A model generated the notes under the pieces. That model saw only the letters and a list, made by a program, of their open reading frames with translations, had not been told where the DNA came from and did not search any database. From positions 82,268 to 146,267 of the forward strand of contig CAZOQP010000002.1 in assembly GCA_964582295.1 (NCBI GenBank): a stretch of 64,000 nucleotides of DNA, read 5' to 3'. Each line of letters opens with the position of its first letter. Positions within the stretch are counted from its first letter, which is position 1. Below are positions 5,495 through 60,180 of this stretch, in pieces. Origin of the DNA: an uncultured Candidatus Saccharibacteria bacterium (lineage in GTDB: Bacteria > Patescibacteriota > Minisyncoccia > Phycocordibacterales > Zambryskibacteraceae). The translations under genes and the position numbers were made by a program.

Positions 5495-5552
5495 GGCGAT
5501 ATTCTATTCATCTAAATTACATTACACAAGCTATATTTTCATCAGATTTATT

Positions 5553-5627
5553 TAGAGCGAGAAAATCATGCTAAAAGAGACTAAGACTTGGGCAAGTGCC
5601 CCGGAGCGGTCTCTTTTAGTATGATTT
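5553..5627. repeat. conserved 65-nt hairpin element, copy 1 (19-bp stem, conserved 27-nt loop, conserved agagcgag flank)
   Basis: Stem is aaatcatgctaaaagagac / gtctcttttagtatgattt around loop taagacttgggcaagtgccccggagcg. The same architecture with a near-identical loop occurs at 60106..60180. It ends ~10 nt downstream of the rpsI stop. Confidence 0.6.
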
Positions 5628-14088: not shown

Positions 14089-14700
14089 CTATATAAGCGT
14101 CTTCAAAACAGCAAAATCTTGTATAAGGGTCGGTTTTTGGGCTTGGTTGTAAATCGCAACCGCAGGATGATAAAGGGGAACCACTTTTATAGGGCCGTAG
14201 GGAGCATCACATTCTATGACCGTGCCGTGCAACTGAGATATCGGTACATCTTTTTCAATGCAATTGAATTTATCCAGAATATATTTCATGGAAAAGCGCC
14301 CGAGAGTGGCCAGAACCTGCGGGCGGATTATCTCAAGCTGACGATCAAGGTACGGGCTATAAGCATCTATCTCCTCCGGGAAGGGATCACGATTGCCGGG
14401 CGGGCGGTCCTTCACTATGTTTGTAATATACACATCCTTACGCGGGATATTCGCCGATTCCAGAAGTTCGTCCAATATTTTGCCGGCTCTCCCTACAAAA
14501 GGCCTTCCGGTTTTGGCCTCATTGGCGCCAGGGGCTTCCCCTATGAACATTATTTTCGCATAGTGGCTACCCTCCCCAATAACAGGCAGCTGCCCCGCCC
14601 CCAAACGCTCCGCATACAAAGGCAAGTCCCCCCCTCTTACGATCTCATCCTTCATCTCTTTCAACTTTTCAAACCTCCCATCTTTATTCTCTATATCCAT
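14089..14700 (-). CDS. uracil-DNA glycosylase, family 4
   Basis: GEAPGANEAKTGRPFVGRAGKILDELL is the family-4 UDG motif. Confidence 0.8.
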   Translation of the reverse strand: MDIENKDGRFEKLKEMKDEIVRGGDLPLYAERLGAGQLPVIGEGSHYAKIMFIGEAPGANEAKTGRPFVGRAGKILDELLESANIPRKDVYITNIVKDRPPGNRDPFPEEIDAYSPYLDRQLEIIRPQVLATLGRFSMKYILDKFNCIEKDVPISQLHGTVIECDAPYGPIKVVPLYHPAVAIYNQAQKPTLIQDFAVLKTLI

Positions 14701-14708
14701 TATATTTT

Positions 14709-14742
14709 TCTATTCTAATGTTCTTAAGAACTTGAGAATAGT
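14709..14742. repeat. palindrome family copy 1 (imperfect; core ctattctaatgttCTTAAGaacttgagaatag) between ArsR stop and udg start
   Basis: Shares 30/32 nt with the perfect copies at 15006..15049 and 16806..16845. Centred on an AflII CTTAAG site. Confidence 0.7.
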
Positions 14743-14979
14743 CTTACCGAGAGGAGAAAGAACATGTCTTACAGAATTTGCATCATTTCTTTTCCAAACA
14801 AGTTTTGCAATGGCAAGACGACGAATATGCTCGCTGGCAGTTTTGAAATTTATCTTTAAGATTTCAGATATTTCGCTCAAAGAAAGATCGGGCTGTTTTG
14901 AGAGTAAAGCTAGAATTTCAATCCTACGATGGTTTGCGAACCCTTTTATCACCCGTTCAATATCTCTAAAATTTTTCAT
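14710..14979 (-). CDS. ArsR/SmtB-family HTH transcriptional regulator (no Cys; non-metal-sensing type)
   Basis: MKNFRDIERVIKGFANHRRIEILALLSKQPDLSLSEISEILKINFKTASEHIRRL is an ArsR winged HTH. Start taken at the internal Met (ORF track 14710..15066 reads through the palindrome). A TATAAT lies ~10 nt upstream. Confidence 0.7.
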   Translation of the reverse strand: MKNFRDIERVIKGFANHRRIEILALLSKQPDLSLSEISEILKINFKTASEHIRRLAIAKLVWKRNDANSVRHVLSPLGKTILKFLRTLE

Positions 14980-15005
14980 AATGCTTTTTATTATAATACA
15001 TTCAT

Positions 15006-15049
15006 TATCTTCTATTCTAATGTTCTTAAGAACATTAGAATAGAAGATA
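15006..15049. repeat. palindrome family copy 2: 44-bp perfect palindrome tatcttctattctaatgttcttaagaacattagaatagaagata, overlapping the -35 region of the ArsR gene
   Basis: Every base is self-complementary about the CTT|AAG centre. Sits immediately upstream of the ArsR TATAAT and start codon. Confidence 0.75.
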
Positions 15050-15055
15050 CCGATA

Positions 15056-15772: not shown

Positions 15773-16609
15773 CTACTGCAGGTCCTTTATCTCGTGAAGA
15801 ACCATCTCTTTTTTATCTTCCGGCAAGCTAAGTGTGTCCAGGATAAGTGGGTCACTTGCGATAGTGTCGCACAAGATAACGCCTTGCGATAGAAGGGTTT
15901 GTTTCTGGAACTGATCAAGGCTGCCGATGCTTGTAACGGGTACCGCATTAGTTTCCATAATAAAATCATGAAGATTTCCTTTTTCAGGGTAATTCCATCC
16001 CACGAGCTTCAGCTTTTTGCATTCCGCATAGTGAATAGCGGTAGTGGTGAATTTGGTGTTAGTGATAAGCCACCCTTCCGTGAGCTTTCTATCAAAACCA
16101 TAATGAAAAACTGTCTCATCCAGATCATCAATGCGTGCTTTCACATAAAGCACCACTTTCAGATCAGATTTCACCCCGAGCTCGTTATGGAACTTTGCCT
16201 CAGCCATGATCAATTCTTTTTCATTCCAGGCCACCACATCTATCTCGTGCGGTACACACTCACCCAAAACCATCTGGCGGGTTTTCACTTCAAATCCTTT
16301 TCGGCGAAGTATCTCACCTACATAATCTTCAAACGGGAAGCCTGTGGGGCCTAAATTCATGACAGAGCGGCGCAGGGAATACCGGCGGGCCGCTTTGGTA
16401 TGCGAACTGTGTAAAATCTCAAATGCCTCTTTATAAATTTCCGCGGTGAGTGCGCCATCCACCAGAGTCCCAACGATCTTTTTAACTATTTCATCAGCAG
16501 TGTTTTCCTCTGCGCCAGCCTGAACCAAAGAATGGTGAAGTTTTCCTTCATCAAATATCTCCCGTCCGCCGTTTTCTTTTACTATAAAAATCTGCCCCAT
16601 TAAGACCAA
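15773..16609 (-). CDS. ATP-cone domain fused to Mrr-like PD-(D/E)xK nuclease-fold domain
   Basis: N-terminal IFIVKENGGREIFDEGKLHHSL is an ATP-cone. The central HEIDVVAW...LIMAEAKFH is a D-ExK restriction-endonuclease-like motif. Confidence 0.5.
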   Translation of the reverse strand: MVLMGQIFIVKENGGREIFDEGKLHHSLVQAGAEENTADEIVKKIVGTLVDGALTAEIYKEAFEILHSSHTKAARRYSLRRSVMNLGPTGFPFEDYVGEILRRKGFEVKTRQMVLGECVPHEIDVVAWNEKELIMAEAKFHNELGVKSDLKVVLYVKARIDDLDETVFHYGFDRKLTEGWLITNTKFTTTAIHYAECKKLKLVGWNYPEKGNLHDFIMETNAVPVTSIGSLDQFQKQTLLSQGVILCDTIASDPLILDTLSLPEDKKEMVLHEIKDLQ

Positions 16610-17710
16610 TTATACCCCACTCACAATGGCTCCTCCGAGTATATTCCTGCCACTATAAAAAACTACGGACTGCCCGGCGGCTATTGGTGATGGACTTTTC
16701 ACAGATACATACCATTCTCCTGTCGGCGACTTACCCTTTCGGAAGAGTTTAACTTTCTGTTTTGGCTGGCGATAACGAAACCTTGCCTCGCAACTTATCC
16801 CTTCCTTTCCTATTCTAATGTTCTTAAGAACATTAGAATAGGAAATTGATACGTTTGATAGTTTGAGGGTATATTCGCGGGCCAGGGATTTTTGTGGGCC
16901 TACCACCAGCACGTTCCTTTTAATATCTTTTTTTAAAATATACAACGGCTCATCGTCGGACGTTTCGTGTTCCACTCTAAATCCATGTCTCTCCCCTTCC
17001 GTATAAAACCACACGCCATTATGAGTGCCTATTTTTCTCCCTGCCTCATCAAGAACACTTCCCTTCTTCTCACGAATAGATATTTTCAGATATTCCTTTA
17101 GGTCTAGTGGGCCAAGGAAACAAATTCCCTGACTATCTTTCTTTTCTGCTACTGGAATGCCGGCTTTCTTTGCCAAAGCCCTTACCTCCTTTTTAGTGAG
17201 AGCTTCAAGAGGAAATATGACTTTTTCCAGATCTTCAGGTGGTACTGCCCACAGGAAATACGTCTGATCTTTCTGTGAGTCTTTCGGCTCACTTAAAAAT
17301 GCTTCATCGTTTTTAACCGAGATGCGTGCGTAATGCCCTGTAGCTACGAAATCAGCTCCGAGTTTTTTTGCTATTTCAAACAATGTAGAGAACTTCACGA
17401 ACTTATTACAGAGAATATCAGGATTAGGAGTTCTTCCCGCTTTGTATTCGCGTATCATTTCGTCCGCCACATATTTTTTGTACTGCTTTTTAGCATCTGC
17501 AATATAAAGCGGAACATTCAAATGCGCCGCCACACGCATAGCATCACGTCTCTCTTCTTTTTCGTTGCACGGGAAGCCTTCCGGGTGCCATGTTTCAATA
17601 AATACCCCAGAAACATCAAAACCACGCTCTTTCAGAAGATACGCCGAAACAGAGGAATCCACTCCTCCTGACATCCCTACCACCACTTTGACCCTTTTCA
17701 TCGCGACCAA
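16610..17710 (-). CDS. mnmA: tRNA-specific 2-thiouridylase MnmA, carrying an in-frame palindromic insertion
   Basis: VVGMSGGVDSSVSAYLL PP-loop, and C-terminal CEARFRYRQ plus GQSVVFYSG. Residues ~289-303 (SISYSNVLKNIRIGK) are encoded by the palindrome. Confidence 0.9.
   Translation of the reverse strand: MVAMKRVKVVVGMSGGVDSSVSAYLLKERGFDVSGVFIETWHPEGFPCNEKEERRDAMRVAAHLNVPLYIADAKKQYKKYVADEMIREYKAGRTPNPDILCNKFVKFSTLFEIAKKLGADFVATGHYARISVKNDEAFLSEPKDSQKDQTYFLWAVPPEDLEKVIFPLEALTKKEVRALAKKAGIPVAEKKDSQGICFLGPLDLKEYLKISIREKKGSVLDEAGRKIGTHNGVWFYTEGERHGFRVEHETSDDEPLYILKKDIKRNVLVVGPQKSLAREYTLKLSNVSISYSNVLKNIRIGKEGISCEARFRYRQPKQKVKLFRKGKSPTGEWYVSVKSPSPIAAGQSVVFYSGRNILGGAIVSGV
16806..16845. repeat. palindrome family copy 3: 40-bp perfect palindrome tttcctattctaatgttcttaagaacattagaataggaaa inside the mnmA coding sequence
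   Basis: Perfect inverted symmetry with the same 32-bp core as copies 1-2. The ORF stays open and in frame. Confidence 0.75.
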
Positions 17711-36347: not shown

Positions 36348-36679
36348 ATGTCCTTAGAAGAAAACCTCCAAGAGACCATATGTCGTAAATAACGAAAGCA
36401 TCAAGAAGACGATTACCCAGGTTATTTTCTTTTCTGTGCTCACTTGGATGGATTTGATTGTCTTACGCACAAAGCCCGCCGCCAGGAGCTCTAGGCTTTC
36501 GCCCAGAACGTATAGGTTTCCCCATACGACCATCCAAGGAACCCTGACGACGGGTTTTCTGACTTGGATGGTTTTAGAGCCGTGCCTCTTACGAGGGTTA
36601 GGCTAATTTCCCTACACTTTCACTCACAAGTCAAACTATATTATAATACCCCTATATTGTCAAGGAAAATACGTGGATA

Positions 36680-38045: not shown

Positions 38046-38181
38046 AGCAGGAGAGAAATGAAAAGACTTTCGGGGCGAGGAACACGAAACCGTTCTCACG
38101 ATTCCACCTGTTGTCGGAGTTGCCGTTGTAGGCGTTGAGCCACCGGCCTTCGTCGTTGCGGTTGAGACCGAGAACGTTCGG
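38046..38181 (-). repeat. DGR template repeat (TR), 136 bp
   Basis: Aligns to 38593..38728 with 19 mismatches, all at TR T on the given strand (A on the coding strand). Its pseudo-ORF is Asn(AAC)-rich: GNPNVLGLNRNDEGRWLNAYNGNSDNRWNRENGFVFLAP. Confidence 0.8.
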
Positions 38182-38469
38182 ATTGCCATCGGAATCGGTT
38201 ATGTATAAAGCACCTCCCGCGCCACTACCCATAAGAGAGCACCAGGCTCAATCCACAGGCTGTATCGAATGCCGCATCGTAATGCGATAGTGCTCTATAC
38301 CAAGTATCTTCATTTTTTGAAGAGTCTACATAAGCCCTCCGTCTGAAACCGTAGTCTCAGGCGCTCTCAGCTTATGGATACTGGGGTCGGTAGCGGGACA
38401 CCGTAGCCTCCCGCATATTCACCTACTGCCGTTGCTTATCTTAATTGAAATTTTTTACAAAAGGAAAGC

Positions 38470-38587: not shown

Positions 38588-39253
38588 CTACTCTTGCGGG
38601 GCGAGGAACACGAAACCGTACTCACGACCCCACCTGTCGTCGGAGTAGCCGAAGTAGGCGTCGAGCCACCGGCCCGCGTCGACGCGGAGGAGACCGAGAA
38701 CGATCGGAGGGCCATCGGAATCGGTGATCGGCTCGTGCATCACGATGAGCCAGTAAAGTCCCATCGCGGCGATCTCTTCGTCGGAGACAGACTTCCGCAA
38801 CAGCCGAGCGAGTTCGGCTGTCGGCGTGATGAGCCCCATCTCCTCGGCAACCTTGCGGATGTTCGAGGTGACGCGCTCGTCGTCGGTGAAGCACTCACCT
38901 TTGAGCACCACAGGCTTGTAGGTCACGCCATTGCTGACGACGTAGGACTTCTGCTTCATCACGTCCTTGGCCCAGTCGCCCACGTTGTAGCGGGCCTTCT
39001 CGAGGTCCTTGATGCCGTCCTTACCGGAGACACCGTCGGAGACCACGAGATTGAGCGCCACCGGCGTGATGACATTCTTCTCCGGGGCCTTCGGCTCGAC
39101 CATCTTGATCTCGGCGCGTCCTTCGAGGAGCGCCTTAACCGACGTGAGCCGCCCCCGGGAGGTCAGTGCCTTGAGCTGGTCGGCCGTGAAGCCGTCCGCC
39201 TCGAAAGCGTCTGCCAGTTCGTTCATCTGTCCGATCGTGTAGAGTGAGGACAT
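38588..39253 (-). CDS. DGR target (variable) protein; C-terminal variable region, likely C-type-lectin/FGE-like fold
   Basis: C-terminal ITDSDGPPIVLGLLRVDAGRWLDAYFGYSDDRWGREYGFVFLAPQE corresponds to the TR. The gene is conspicuously GC-rich compared with its flanks. Start taken at MSSLYT (ORF track starts at 39313). Confidence 0.8.
   Translation of the reverse strand: MSSLYTIGQMNELADAFEADGFTADQLKALTSRGRLTSVKALLEGRAEIKMVEPKAPEKNVITPVALNLVVSDGVSGKDGIKDLEKARYNVGDWAKDVMKQKSYVVSNGVTYKPVVLKGECFTDDERVTSNIRKVAEEMGLITPTAELARLLRKSVSDEEIAAMGLYWLIVMHEPITDSDGPPIVLGLLRVDAGRWLDAYFGYSDDRWGREYGFVFLAPQE
38593..38728 (-). repeat. DGR variable repeat (VR) at the 3' end of the target gene
   Basis: See TR. The VR ends at the target stop codon (38588..38590). 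Confidence 0.8.
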
Positions 39254-48146: not shown

Positions 48147-48209
48147 GTTATTCTTTGCTTCAACAACTATTTTTGGGCTATAATCGCCCTTGTTCAGGCA
48201 GGCTTCTGT

Positions 48210-48357
48210 GGGCCCTTAGCTTGGTTGTAGCGTTTCGTGAAATCAACCTAGAAGTGCCCATTGGATAGAAATACATCGATCATGGGCTCTTAGATTGGTT
48301 GTAGCGTTTCGTGAAAGCAACATAGAAGTGCCTGTCGGCGAGAAGTACATTAATTAT
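48210..48357 (+). repeat. two tandem 74-bp units, each beginning with the first ~22 nt of tRNA-Ala
   Basis: Unit 1 (48210..48283) and unit 2 (48284..48357) are ~80% identical. Both start gggcYcttagMttggttgtagcg, compared with gggcccttagcttagttggtagagcg in the tRNA. They are directly contiguous with the intact tRNA. Confidence 0.5.
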
Positions 48358-48433
48358 GGGCCCTTAGCTTAGTTGGTAGAGCGCCTCATTTGCAATGAGG
48401 AGGTCATCGGTTCGAATCCGATAGGGTCCACCA
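48358..48433 (+). tRNA. tRNA-Ala (anticodon UGC), CCA encoded
   Basis: Cloverleaf GGGCCCT-TA-GCTT-AGTTGGTA-GAGC-G-CCTCA-TTTGCAA-TGAGG-AGGTC-ATCGG-TTCGAAT-CCGAT-AGGGTCC-A-CCA. G3:U70 alanine identity pair present. Confidence 0.9.
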
Positions 48434-60063: not shown

Positions 60064-60105
60064 AACATTTTGCCTATTATTTTATTCCACCTTCCTAATC
60101 ACATT

Positions 60106-60180
60106 CAGAGCGAGAGATGACAACGAAAAGAGACTAGGACTTGGGCAAACGCCCCGGAGTGGTCTCTTTTCGTTGTCATC
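60106..60180. repeat. conserved 65-nt hairpin element, copy 2
   Basis: Stem gatgacaacgaaaagagac / gtctcttttcgttgtcatc around loop taggacttgggcaaacgccccggagtg. Preceded by cagagcgag. Ends ~11 nt downstream of the FKBP gene stop. Confidence 0.6.

Follow-up and report, generated by a model that had tools for sequence, protein, structure and literature searches.

How does a perfect palindrome come to lie, in frame, inside a housekeeping gene? This is the question raised by a 64,000-nucleotide stretch of DNA from an uncultured Candidatus Saccharibacteria bacterium (contig CAZOQP010000002.1), the whole of which we call the window. Positions 16806-16845 of the window, within the mnmA gene for tRNA 2-thiouridine(34) synthase, read tttcctattctaatgttcttaagaacattagaataggaaa, a perfect 40-bp palindrome composed of two 20-nt arms with zero spacer. 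A preliminary description, made from the sequence of the window, had pointed out this palindrome and its placement in frame, both of which the sequence bears out, and had likened it to the Rickettsia palindromic elements (RPEs), a comparison we take up below. We find that the palindrome belongs to a widespread repeat family, that this family is tied to a small gene cassette of recurrent architecture whose presence at its site in the window is an insertion/deletion difference, that copies also lie in frame in other genes, and that symmetry is kept site by site. In our judgment the palindrome is rather probably an element resembling RPEs and the repetitive extragenic palindromes (REPs), which has spread across the Patescibacteria and probably doubles as the operator of a mobile regulator cassette.

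The open reading frame (ORF) that contains the palindrome is the sole long one at this position. Its product of 366 residues matches PF03054 (2.3e-74, PP-loop HUP), PF20259 (9e-16) and PF20258 (3.6e-9), the last two being the PRC-barrel and C-terminal barrel, and is 100% identical, peptide included, to the deposited protein P0001 (P numbers denote database MnmA orthologues and L numbers the loci fetched for comparison). If codons are counted from the TTG at 17710, those of the palindrome are 289-302 and encode ISYSNVLKNIRIGK, so that the residues proposed earlier, ~289-303, were right within one residue. When 40 orthologues are aligned, the segment is preceded by a strand ending 'L.L..v.i' and followed by the conserved 'C.ARFRYRQ', and falls in a loop of ~20 aa in the window compared to ~9 aa in most orthologues; the insertion that had been suspected is present in the alignment, but it amounts to ~10-11 extra residues and not to 12-15. 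The peptide is absent from the closest relatives (65-72% identity), which have unrelated fillers of 4-36 residues instead; P0002-P0007, P0009-P0011 and P0013 possess neither peptide nor palindrome, and the DNA of L155 likewise has nothing similar. P0008 and P0012 do have a related peptide, because their DNA (L152 and L153) carries a diverged 32-bp palindrome at the identical codons: a variant in L153, CCATTCTAATGTTCTAACGAACGTTAGAATGG, which encodes HSNVLTNVRM, and a decaying one in L152, CTATTCTAATGTTCTAACGAATTTTGGAATAG. Relatives without the DNA palindrome thus lack the peptide too, which supports the interpretation as an insertion. The AF2 model of MnmA, with a mean pLDDT of 91.5, shows the insert as its least confident block (pLDDT 64), a short helix and loop joining two strands of the C-terminal barrel, and the RNA of this copy is predicted to fold into a hairpin of -24.8 kcal/mol (z = -8.1). 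The gene order YceG-MnmA-ATPcone/Mrr-ExoX-UDG is common to the window and the relatives; the neighbor of mnmA in this order (15773-16609, minus strand), which adjoins it in the relatives also, encodes 278 aa with an ATP-cone fused to an Mrr_cat restriction-endonuclease-like domain. These comparisons show the mnmA element to be an addition to MnmA that is inherited within a sub-clade and able to decay. The invasion of mnmA envisaged in the preliminary description stands as an addition to the gene, but the event is not demonstrably recent.

The 32-bp core of the palindrome, CTATTCTAATGTTCTTAAGAACATTAGAATAG, had previously been noticed at three places in the window, and its restriction to these would have spoken against a repeat family. 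Among species-representative metagenome-assembled genomes (MAGs), 18 contain the exact 32-mer, in 31 stretches, with 1-12 exact copies per MAG (the highest count, 12, in KR11_S3.mb.10), and the inner 28-mer is present in at least 120 metagenome contigs; 100 dinucleotide shuffles of the window gave zero matches to the core. Nearly all of the host MAGs are Patescibacteria (Paceibacterota, Kaiserbacteria, Kerfeldbacteria, Saccharibacteria-labelled and Parcubacteria), and one contig is binned as Nanoarchaeota. The element has the form ATTCTAATGTTC-TTAA-GAACATTAGAAT, a core of 28-32 bp extended by outer symmetric arms of variable length to 28-52 bp overall. We collected 176 distinct copies with up to six mismatches from 1.08 Mb of fetched DNA, a set whose primary copies were retrieved by exact pattern, so that the identity of the core is partly there by construction and natural variation is seen only in the secondary copies. 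Our full-text literature searches found no earlier description, in Patescibacteria, of the element or of the pair it forms with the protein described next.

The other two copies in the window had been taken to repeat the core and to be extragenic. The core at 15012-15043 is indeed exact, but the copy at 14710-14741 has two mismatches, and the word extragenic fits neither: the latter makes up the 3' end of a gene, at whose promoter the former lies. Reading along the minus strand, the stop codon of an ExoX-like exonuclease gene is followed by 6 nt, the 44-bp upstream palindrome, 10 nt, a TATAAT box, another 10 nt, and the ATG of a gene for a winged-helix protein; this gene takes its TAG stop and its final ten codons (..ILKFLRTLE) from the 3' copy, and the ATG of UDG, a uracil-DNA glycosylase gene, comes 9 nt on. 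The upstream copy covers the -35 region of the winged-helix gene promoter. The protein scores 32.6 bits against Pfam HTH_5 (cut-off 22), its PDB matches include HlyU (3jth, E = 2e-5, 79 residues, 10-88) as well as YgaV, PagR and CadC, and it contains zero cysteines and, judged by eye on the sequence, no recognised metal-site motif. The hairpin of the 3' copy is imperfect (-10.5 kcal/mol, z = -1.2); a K-type variant of the 3' palindrome reads CTATTCTCAAGTTCTTAAGAACATTAGAATAG. This tie of the palindrome family to a winged-helix cassette goes beyond what the preliminary description had observed. In a syntenic relative (L155/L154; YceG-MnmA-ATPcone/Mrr-ExoX-UDG-AlaRS, with MnmA 72% identical), the cassette is absent at the ExoX-UDG junction, where the start of UDG overlaps the stop of ExoX (ATGA) with zero intervening sequence; the cassette is therefore an indel with the palindromes as its boundaries. 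Two small features of the palindrome may be recorded here. At 14699-14727 on the minus strand, TTAAGA in the middle of the 3' copy is followed after 17 nt by TATAAT, a 10/12 sigma-70-like match at the start of UDG, and the palindrome centre CTTAAG is an AflII-type site.

The same arrangement recurs elsewhere. By tblastn our loci contain ~33 distinct homologues of the winged-helix protein, nearly all of them with one copy of the palindrome on the 5' side and one forming the final ten codons and the stop. The family, from Patescibacteria, has over 1,125 database clusters, most of them of 89 aa, and approximately nine-tenths of the best 120 matches terminate in an IL(K/M)FL..LE-type sequence, chiefly ILKFLRTLE. 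About 30 homologous cassettes repeat the order of palindrome, 8-14-nt spacer, TATAAT-like box, short leader and ATG, and a -10-like box follows 47% of the cassette 5' copies, where the figure is 11% for the sides of solo copies and 7% for background positions. L032 has a homologue with 42% identity whose two flanking copies are of another palindrome, ATCCTTAAATAC-TGGA-GTATTTAAGGAT (1367-1394 and 1723-1750), in an equal layout, with TATAAT after the first copy and the stop codon within the second. L147 contains a hybrid cassette, with a copy related to this second family upstream (1129-1156) and the core of the first family at the 3' end. Taken together, membership in the ArsR/SmtB family, the operator position and the co-variation with a second type of palindrome lead us to infer that the winged-helix protein binds the palindrome.

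Cassette orthologues that are 73-78% identical to the window protein are found in unrelated neighborhoods (tRNA_edit/hypothetical, kinase/threonine synthase, and GH18/DUF2914), in contrast to the mnmA neighborhood, which remains syntenic at similar divergence. The indel and these varying contexts suggest that the cassette relocates between genomic sites. One cassette clade (L005, L009, L026, L127 and related loci) always has the cassette between ComEC (Competence domain) and a separate gene of metallo-beta-lactamase fold. In the KR11 and H52 genomes, solo copies and the cassette 3' copy have the flank (at)aaaag/ctttt(at) in common, its AAAAG in the cassette 3' copy encoding Gly-Lys-Ala, which hints at the cassette 3' copy as the source of the solo copies. 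The contig binned as Nanoarchaeota (L003, JAUYPG010000087.1, 4,347 bp) holds a complete palindrome-winged-helix-palindrome cassette and an exact solo copy, either by transfer between episymbiont lineages or by mis-binning.

The core has a single open frame, YSNVLKNIRI, which is identical on both strands; the remaining two frames meet TAA or TAG, and the TAG frame is the one that ends the winged-helix gene. A copy within a gene would be translated as this peptide because no other frame is open. At least 14 genes recognisable by Pfam or alignment contain an in-frame copy (see the table), and the element-free orthologues present in other loci have zero palindrome at the equivalent places. Compared with orthologues, the Mur ligase is longer by a net 13 aa, the methyltransferase by 9, triosephosphate isomerase (TIM) by 5, RNase HII by 3 and YchF by ~0. 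Beyond the GHY motif, the MnmA proteins of L012 (826-2097, minus strand) and L034 (3217-4545, plus strand) contain a further extra segment, ..STGTGRLFAPAAKSGLDSR.., which the window MnmA is without; this may be another in-frame element.

YchF allows the fate of such a copy to be followed over some distance. Most of the YchF orthologues that are 68-85% identical to that of L055 have, at the same position, a related peptide, (H/Y)S(N/D)(V/I)L(E/K)N(V/I)R(M/I), in a minority a Y.ELLKNPKL-type sequence stands there, and canonical YchF, including that of the window, has an LTDEEKKIV-type sequence of equal length. L166 matches the core at 30/32 positions with 13/14 stem pairs. L164 matches at only 23/32 and still has 13/14 stem pairs, the compensatory changes T10C/A23G altering N to D and I to V together, and L165, at 20/32, has 11/14 stem pairs with two compensatory pairs. 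L167, of the Y.ELLKNPKL type, has 5/14. Random synonymous codons for the YchF peptides would be expected to give ~8/14 pairs, and the observed 13, 11 and 13 pairs correspond, in this order, to P = 0.001, 0.036 and 0.0008. Given this codon choice and pairing, a copy within a gene can therefore be old, with its palindromy kept beyond what the protein requires.

Symmetry at the level of the individual site is seen throughout the collection. Mismatches to the core are mostly even in number (two in 37 copies and four in 30, vs one in 7 and three in 11). The palindrome reaches past the core by copy-specific sequence in 129 of 175 copies, and by at least 4 bp in 62, where we estimate the chance extension of an arm in AT-rich DNA at about 30% per step; the arms are longer in intergenic than in in-gene copies. 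Where the upstream copy of a cassette is off consensus, its arms equal each other and the 3' copy in that genome differs; in L010, for instance, the two arms both read TTATTCCAATG, in L009 both have ..TATTG and in L161 both have ..TAGTG. The upstream copies of L158 and L121 have taken on, in each of their arms, the lysine-coding variant of the left arm of the 3' copy. L165 and L008, which come from one MAG, present a diverged-but-symmetric copy alongside a consensus copy. Such symmetry per site is unlike what drift of the specificity of a binding protein would produce, and it would suit hairpin-templated correction, exchange between copies, or selection for pairing.

Outside genes, the copies lie between convergent genes in 37 cases and divergent genes in 8, vs 195 and 137 for the background (Fisher P = 0.002), and with cassette-linked copies excluded in 27 and 6 (P = 0.009), rough figures that rest on greedy ORF calls made for this analysis. 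Solo copies prefer gene 3' ends, as REPs do. The recurrent neighbors among 2,536 clustered ORFs are the winged-helix gene and housekeeping genes only (ComEC, metallo-beta-lactamase-fold, TruB-like and L28). Several simple explanations considered for the copies were rejected. As intrinsic terminators they have T-runs after 14% of the non-genic copies vs 12% of the background, and a terminator scan was silent at the three copies of the window. A role in DNA uptake was set aside: uptake signals measure 9-12 bp and originate through drift, unlike a 32-bp unit that adds residues, and the winged-helix protein lacks an export signal. A link to restriction-modification, which the central CTTAAG had brought to mind, was dropped, restriction-modification genes not being recurrent nearby. 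So was carriage by phage, since the arms around the central 18-mer are unrelated in its nine viral matches, which are due to chance. Rfam searches at the copies returned only sub-threshold matches to microRNA hairpins.

Features of the palindrome family in the window, and in-frame copies in other loci
Feature	Position in window, or locus	Strand	Basis or remark
mnmA, tRNA 2-thiouridine(34) synthase, host of in-frame copy	16610..17710	-	Pfam domains, orthologues
In-gene palindromic copy	16806..16845	.	self-complementarity; core 16810-16841 plus 4-bp symmetric extension tttc/gaaa
Palindrome-winged-helix-palindrome cassette, 355 bp	14701..15055	-	between ExoX stop (15056) and UDG start (14700)
Upstream copy, 44-bp perfect palindrome, core 15012-15043 exact	15006..15049	.	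probable operator (position)
TATAAT -10-like box of winged-helix gene	14990..14995	-	predicted; consensus match alone
89-aa ArsR/SmtB-family winged-helix gene (MKNFRD...ILKFLRTLE*)	14710..14979	-	Pfam HTH_5, PDB matches
3' copy, quasi-palindrome, 2 mismatches to core	14710..14741	.	sequence match
MnmA, two further lineages, same loop as window	L012, L034		in-frame copy
TsaD, two different sites	L015, L075		in-frame copy
Triosephosphate isomerase (TIM)	L050		in-frame copy
YchF	L055		in-frame copy
Mur ligase (MurD-like)	L073		in-frame copy
RNase HII	L092		in-frame copy
MTS methyltransferase	L105		in-frame copy
M24 peptidase	L114		in-frame copy
PMT_2 glycosyltransferase	L036		in-frame copy
GT87-like protein	L008		in-frame copy
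ComEC	L150		degenerate in-frame copy

The scenario that we prefer would account for these observations as follows. The mnmA palindrome would be a solo, in-frame copy of a short element that otherwise brackets a mobile, single-gene cassette of ArsR/SmtB type. A dimer of the winged-helix protein would bind the palindrome and autoregulate its own gene via the two flanking sites. Copies would spread through some copy-and-paste or conversion process, arriving mostly at gene 3' ends and, in a minority, in tolerant loops of housekeeping proteins. Once established, a copy would be inherited with its arms kept complementary at the nucleic-acid level, likely by hairpin-templated (intrastrand template-switch) correction together with exchange between copies, selection possibly reinforcing the outcome, and some copies would decay. 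A number of points weigh against this scenario. The YchF element replaces a native segment without change of length, and related peptides occur throughout an entire clade, a case that conversion in place or ancient fixation fits better than simple insertion does. The 32-mer and the 28-mer were not found on viral contigs, and no transposase, RAYT or recombinase is recurrent among the 2,536 ORFs near the copies. Among the fetched loci, every one of which was chosen for carrying a copy, there is no filled/empty pair at near-identical sequence. The recognition helix is unlike between cassette clades whose core is identical, and a promoter-type regulon was rejected for the solo copies, a -10 box standing at operator spacing on 11% of their sides vs 7% of the background. 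The retrieval of primary copies by exact pattern and the roughness of the context statistics, both mentioned above, count on the same side. 

One may go further and suppose a self-propagating operator-regulator module of a kind so far undescribed, whose site serves at once as the operator of its own promoter and as its own C-terminal codons and stop, which colonises the genomes of Patescibacteria, and whose in-gene copies are bound and actively kept for a genome-wide function, as punctuation, roadblocks or a parS-like organisation. This we regard as a tentative idea that is more apt to be wrong than right. In another reading the mnmA copy, and in-gene copies in general, are selected intragenic operators, repressor sites that would act as roadblocks or as distal partners in DNA loops to the operators of the cassette, which lie 1.8 kb further downstream in one co-directional string of genes, in which case the family would be a regulon and not selfish DNA. 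The operator position of the upstream copy in nearly every cassette, the YchF palindromy in excess of the peptide's needs, and the recurrence of the MnmA site at one loop in three lineages all agree with such regulation, as do the placement of the in-gene copy upstream of, and co-directional with, the cassette in both the window and L055, and a number of exact copies per genome that is typical of a regulon. Yet the two sites of one genome in L008 and L165 are each symmetric and unlike one another, which points to hairpin symmetry per site and not to a shared specificity; the solo copies stay away from promoters and are found preferentially at gene 3' ends, the host genes have unrelated functions, the copy in L152 is in decay, and the palindrome-bearing YchF orthologues do not adjoin a cassette. 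We consider selected intragenic operators unlikely.

Could the pairing be selected in RNA, the transcribed hairpin serving as a stabiliser of mRNA 3' ends, a processing site or a terminator? Stable predicted hairpins (-24.8 and -28.6 kcal/mol, z ~ -8), compensatory substitutions, a U·G pair in L153, the preference for gene 3' ends and a loop-like tolerance of changes in the central 4 nt are what one would expect of such an element. The most perfectly symmetric copies, however, are the upstream ones, which precede the -10 box and are not transcribed from the cassette promoter, the 3' copy forms an imperfect hairpin in most cassettes, as it does in the window, T-runs are not enriched, and Rfam has zero family matches at the copies; an RNA-level element strikes us as decidedly improbable. 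A similar fate meets the proposal that the palindromes are sites of a host recombinase, Xer-like or other, by which the cassette moves in the manner of pdif modules, solo copies being empty sites or the footprints of excision. Two copies bracket the gene exactly and coincide with the indel boundaries, cassettes stand in unrelated neighborhoods, the L147 hybrid combines two palindrome types, and arm variants have been exchanged between flanking copies, but no linkage to a recombinase was found near the copies, a perfect 14-4-14 palindrome is by our own inspection unlike the 11-6-11 dif architecture, insertion into a presumably essential gene followed by excision is an unlikely route to in-frame copies, and two cassettes in one genome were never seen. 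We hold recombination sites to be very unlikely. That there is no repeat element at all, the segment being native to MnmA and the palindrome a product of chance or of assembly, is suggested at most by the hypervariable length of this loop among close orthologues; with none of the shuffles matching, the 32-mer present in over 150 independent contigs and in proteins unrelated to one another, the mnmA ORF intact across the copy, and the peptide present in the deposited P0001, we regard this reading as refuted.

Returning to the palindromic element with a regulator cassette, its closest parallels are two classes of bacterial repeat. RPEs are dispersed palindromic repeats of reduced genomes, often in frame in unrelated housekeeping genes at fold-compatible places and encoding a conserved peptide (PMC10969869); they measure ~100-150 bp, encode 30-50 aa, form several families confined to Rickettsia and have a CGTC tag (PMC10969869, PMC3733652). 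The resemblance suggested by the preliminary description is sound insofar as in-frame insertion of a multi-copy palindrome into unrelated protein genes works alike, with the inserts here in loops or low-confidence segments. The family is nevertheless no member of the RPEs by size, tag or lineage: it is a perfect palindrome of 28-52 bp that encodes 10-14 aa, has the ends CTAT/ATAG, lacks any sequence relation to RPEs, spans many classes of Patescibacteria, and is tied to the winged-helix cassette. REPs are palindromes of 20-40 bp situated mostly 3' of genes and occasionally within them, and in REPtrons two copies bracket a RAYT gene and further copies are dispersed (PMC3733652). The short core palindrome at gene 3' ends, and the single gene between two copies with others dispersed, repeat this pattern. 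The bracketed gene differs, however, encoding an 89-aa HTH_5 winged-helix protein instead of a tyrosine transposase of IS200/IS605 type (RAYT). Furthermore, the GTAG/CGTC tag is absent, the position matrix being (C/T)(T/C)ATTC...GAAT(A/G)(G/A), the stem is AT-rich and perfect, and one flanking copy is coding sequence. Copy number seems low, at 1-12 exact matches per species-representative MAG, REPs numbering tens to hundreds per genome. Miniature inverted-repeat transposable elements have terminal inverted repeats, a target-site duplication and a cognate transposase; the element here is a single palindrome throughout, and neither a near-identical filled/empty pair that would reveal a duplication nor a transposase was found among the fetched loci.

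Seen from the side of the protein, the cassette recalls ArsR/SmtB repressors, whose operators are palindromes of 12-2-12 type: a winged-helix HTH_5 protein is encoded behind a palindrome of comparable length that overlaps its own promoter, a positional likeness. It departs from them in that the second site is the gene's own 3' codons and stop, that the putative binding site is dispersed genome-wide and into coding regions, and that the protein lacks cysteines and recognised metal-site motifs. The ParB-parS system of Bacillus subtilis has a parS site inside spo0J, the gene of the binding protein itself. Here too a palindromic site is found across distant lineages in a few to a dozen copies, within coding sequence, and once in the gene of its presumed binder, but the protein family is another, and the site is much longer and adds or replaces peptide segments instead of arising within codons. 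In pdif modules, small gene modules lie between two inverted-repeat sites of ~28 bp in varying contexts, and our cassette is likewise a small module bounded by two such sites in varying contexts; it differs by its 14-4-14 perfect palindrome as opposed to the 11-6-11 unequal arms, the evidence for Xer at the copies being none, and by the solo copies within genes.

Some features of the window unrelated to the palindrome deserve a brief record. Two 74-nt tandem units (48209-48282 and 48283-48356) immediately precede the gene for tRNA-Ala(tgc) at 48358-48433, whose 5' end is repeated in their first 19 nt; possibly the units are pseudo-repeats derived from a tRNA. A LOOT RNA (Rfam RF03000) lies at 36491-36604 on the minus strand, with 71.5 bits vs a gathering score of 46.4. 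A 71-nt repeat with 80% identity occurs at 5550-5620 and 60103-60173, each unit having a 19-20-bp inverted repeat with a 27-nt spacer, and has zero Rfam matches at the gathering score. Finally, a 136-nt direct repeat (38067-38202 and 38593-38728, 526 bp apart) is 86% identical.

Patescibacteria make up a large share of bacterial diversity, and their gene regulation and mobile DNA are almost uncharted. The present finding offers a testable pair that exists in many of their lineages, a conserved 89-aa winged-helix protein and a 28-32-bp site, which is also a candidate part for an orthogonal repressor-operator combination. For annotation, peptides such as YSNVLKNIRI and HSNVLKNIRM become recognisable as element-derived, and the site may be used as a marker of Patescibacteria contigs. 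It is a second clear case, outside Rickettsia, of palindromic DNA lying in frame in core enzymes (MnmA, TsaD, TIM, YchF, the MurD-like ligase and RNase HII), and because amino acids change in compensatory pairs and codon choice preserves pairing, a force acting at the level of nucleic acid shapes protein sequence. Should the reading as a self-propagating operator-regulator module prove true, the coding sequences of core housekeeping genes would have a genome-wide function inscribed in them.

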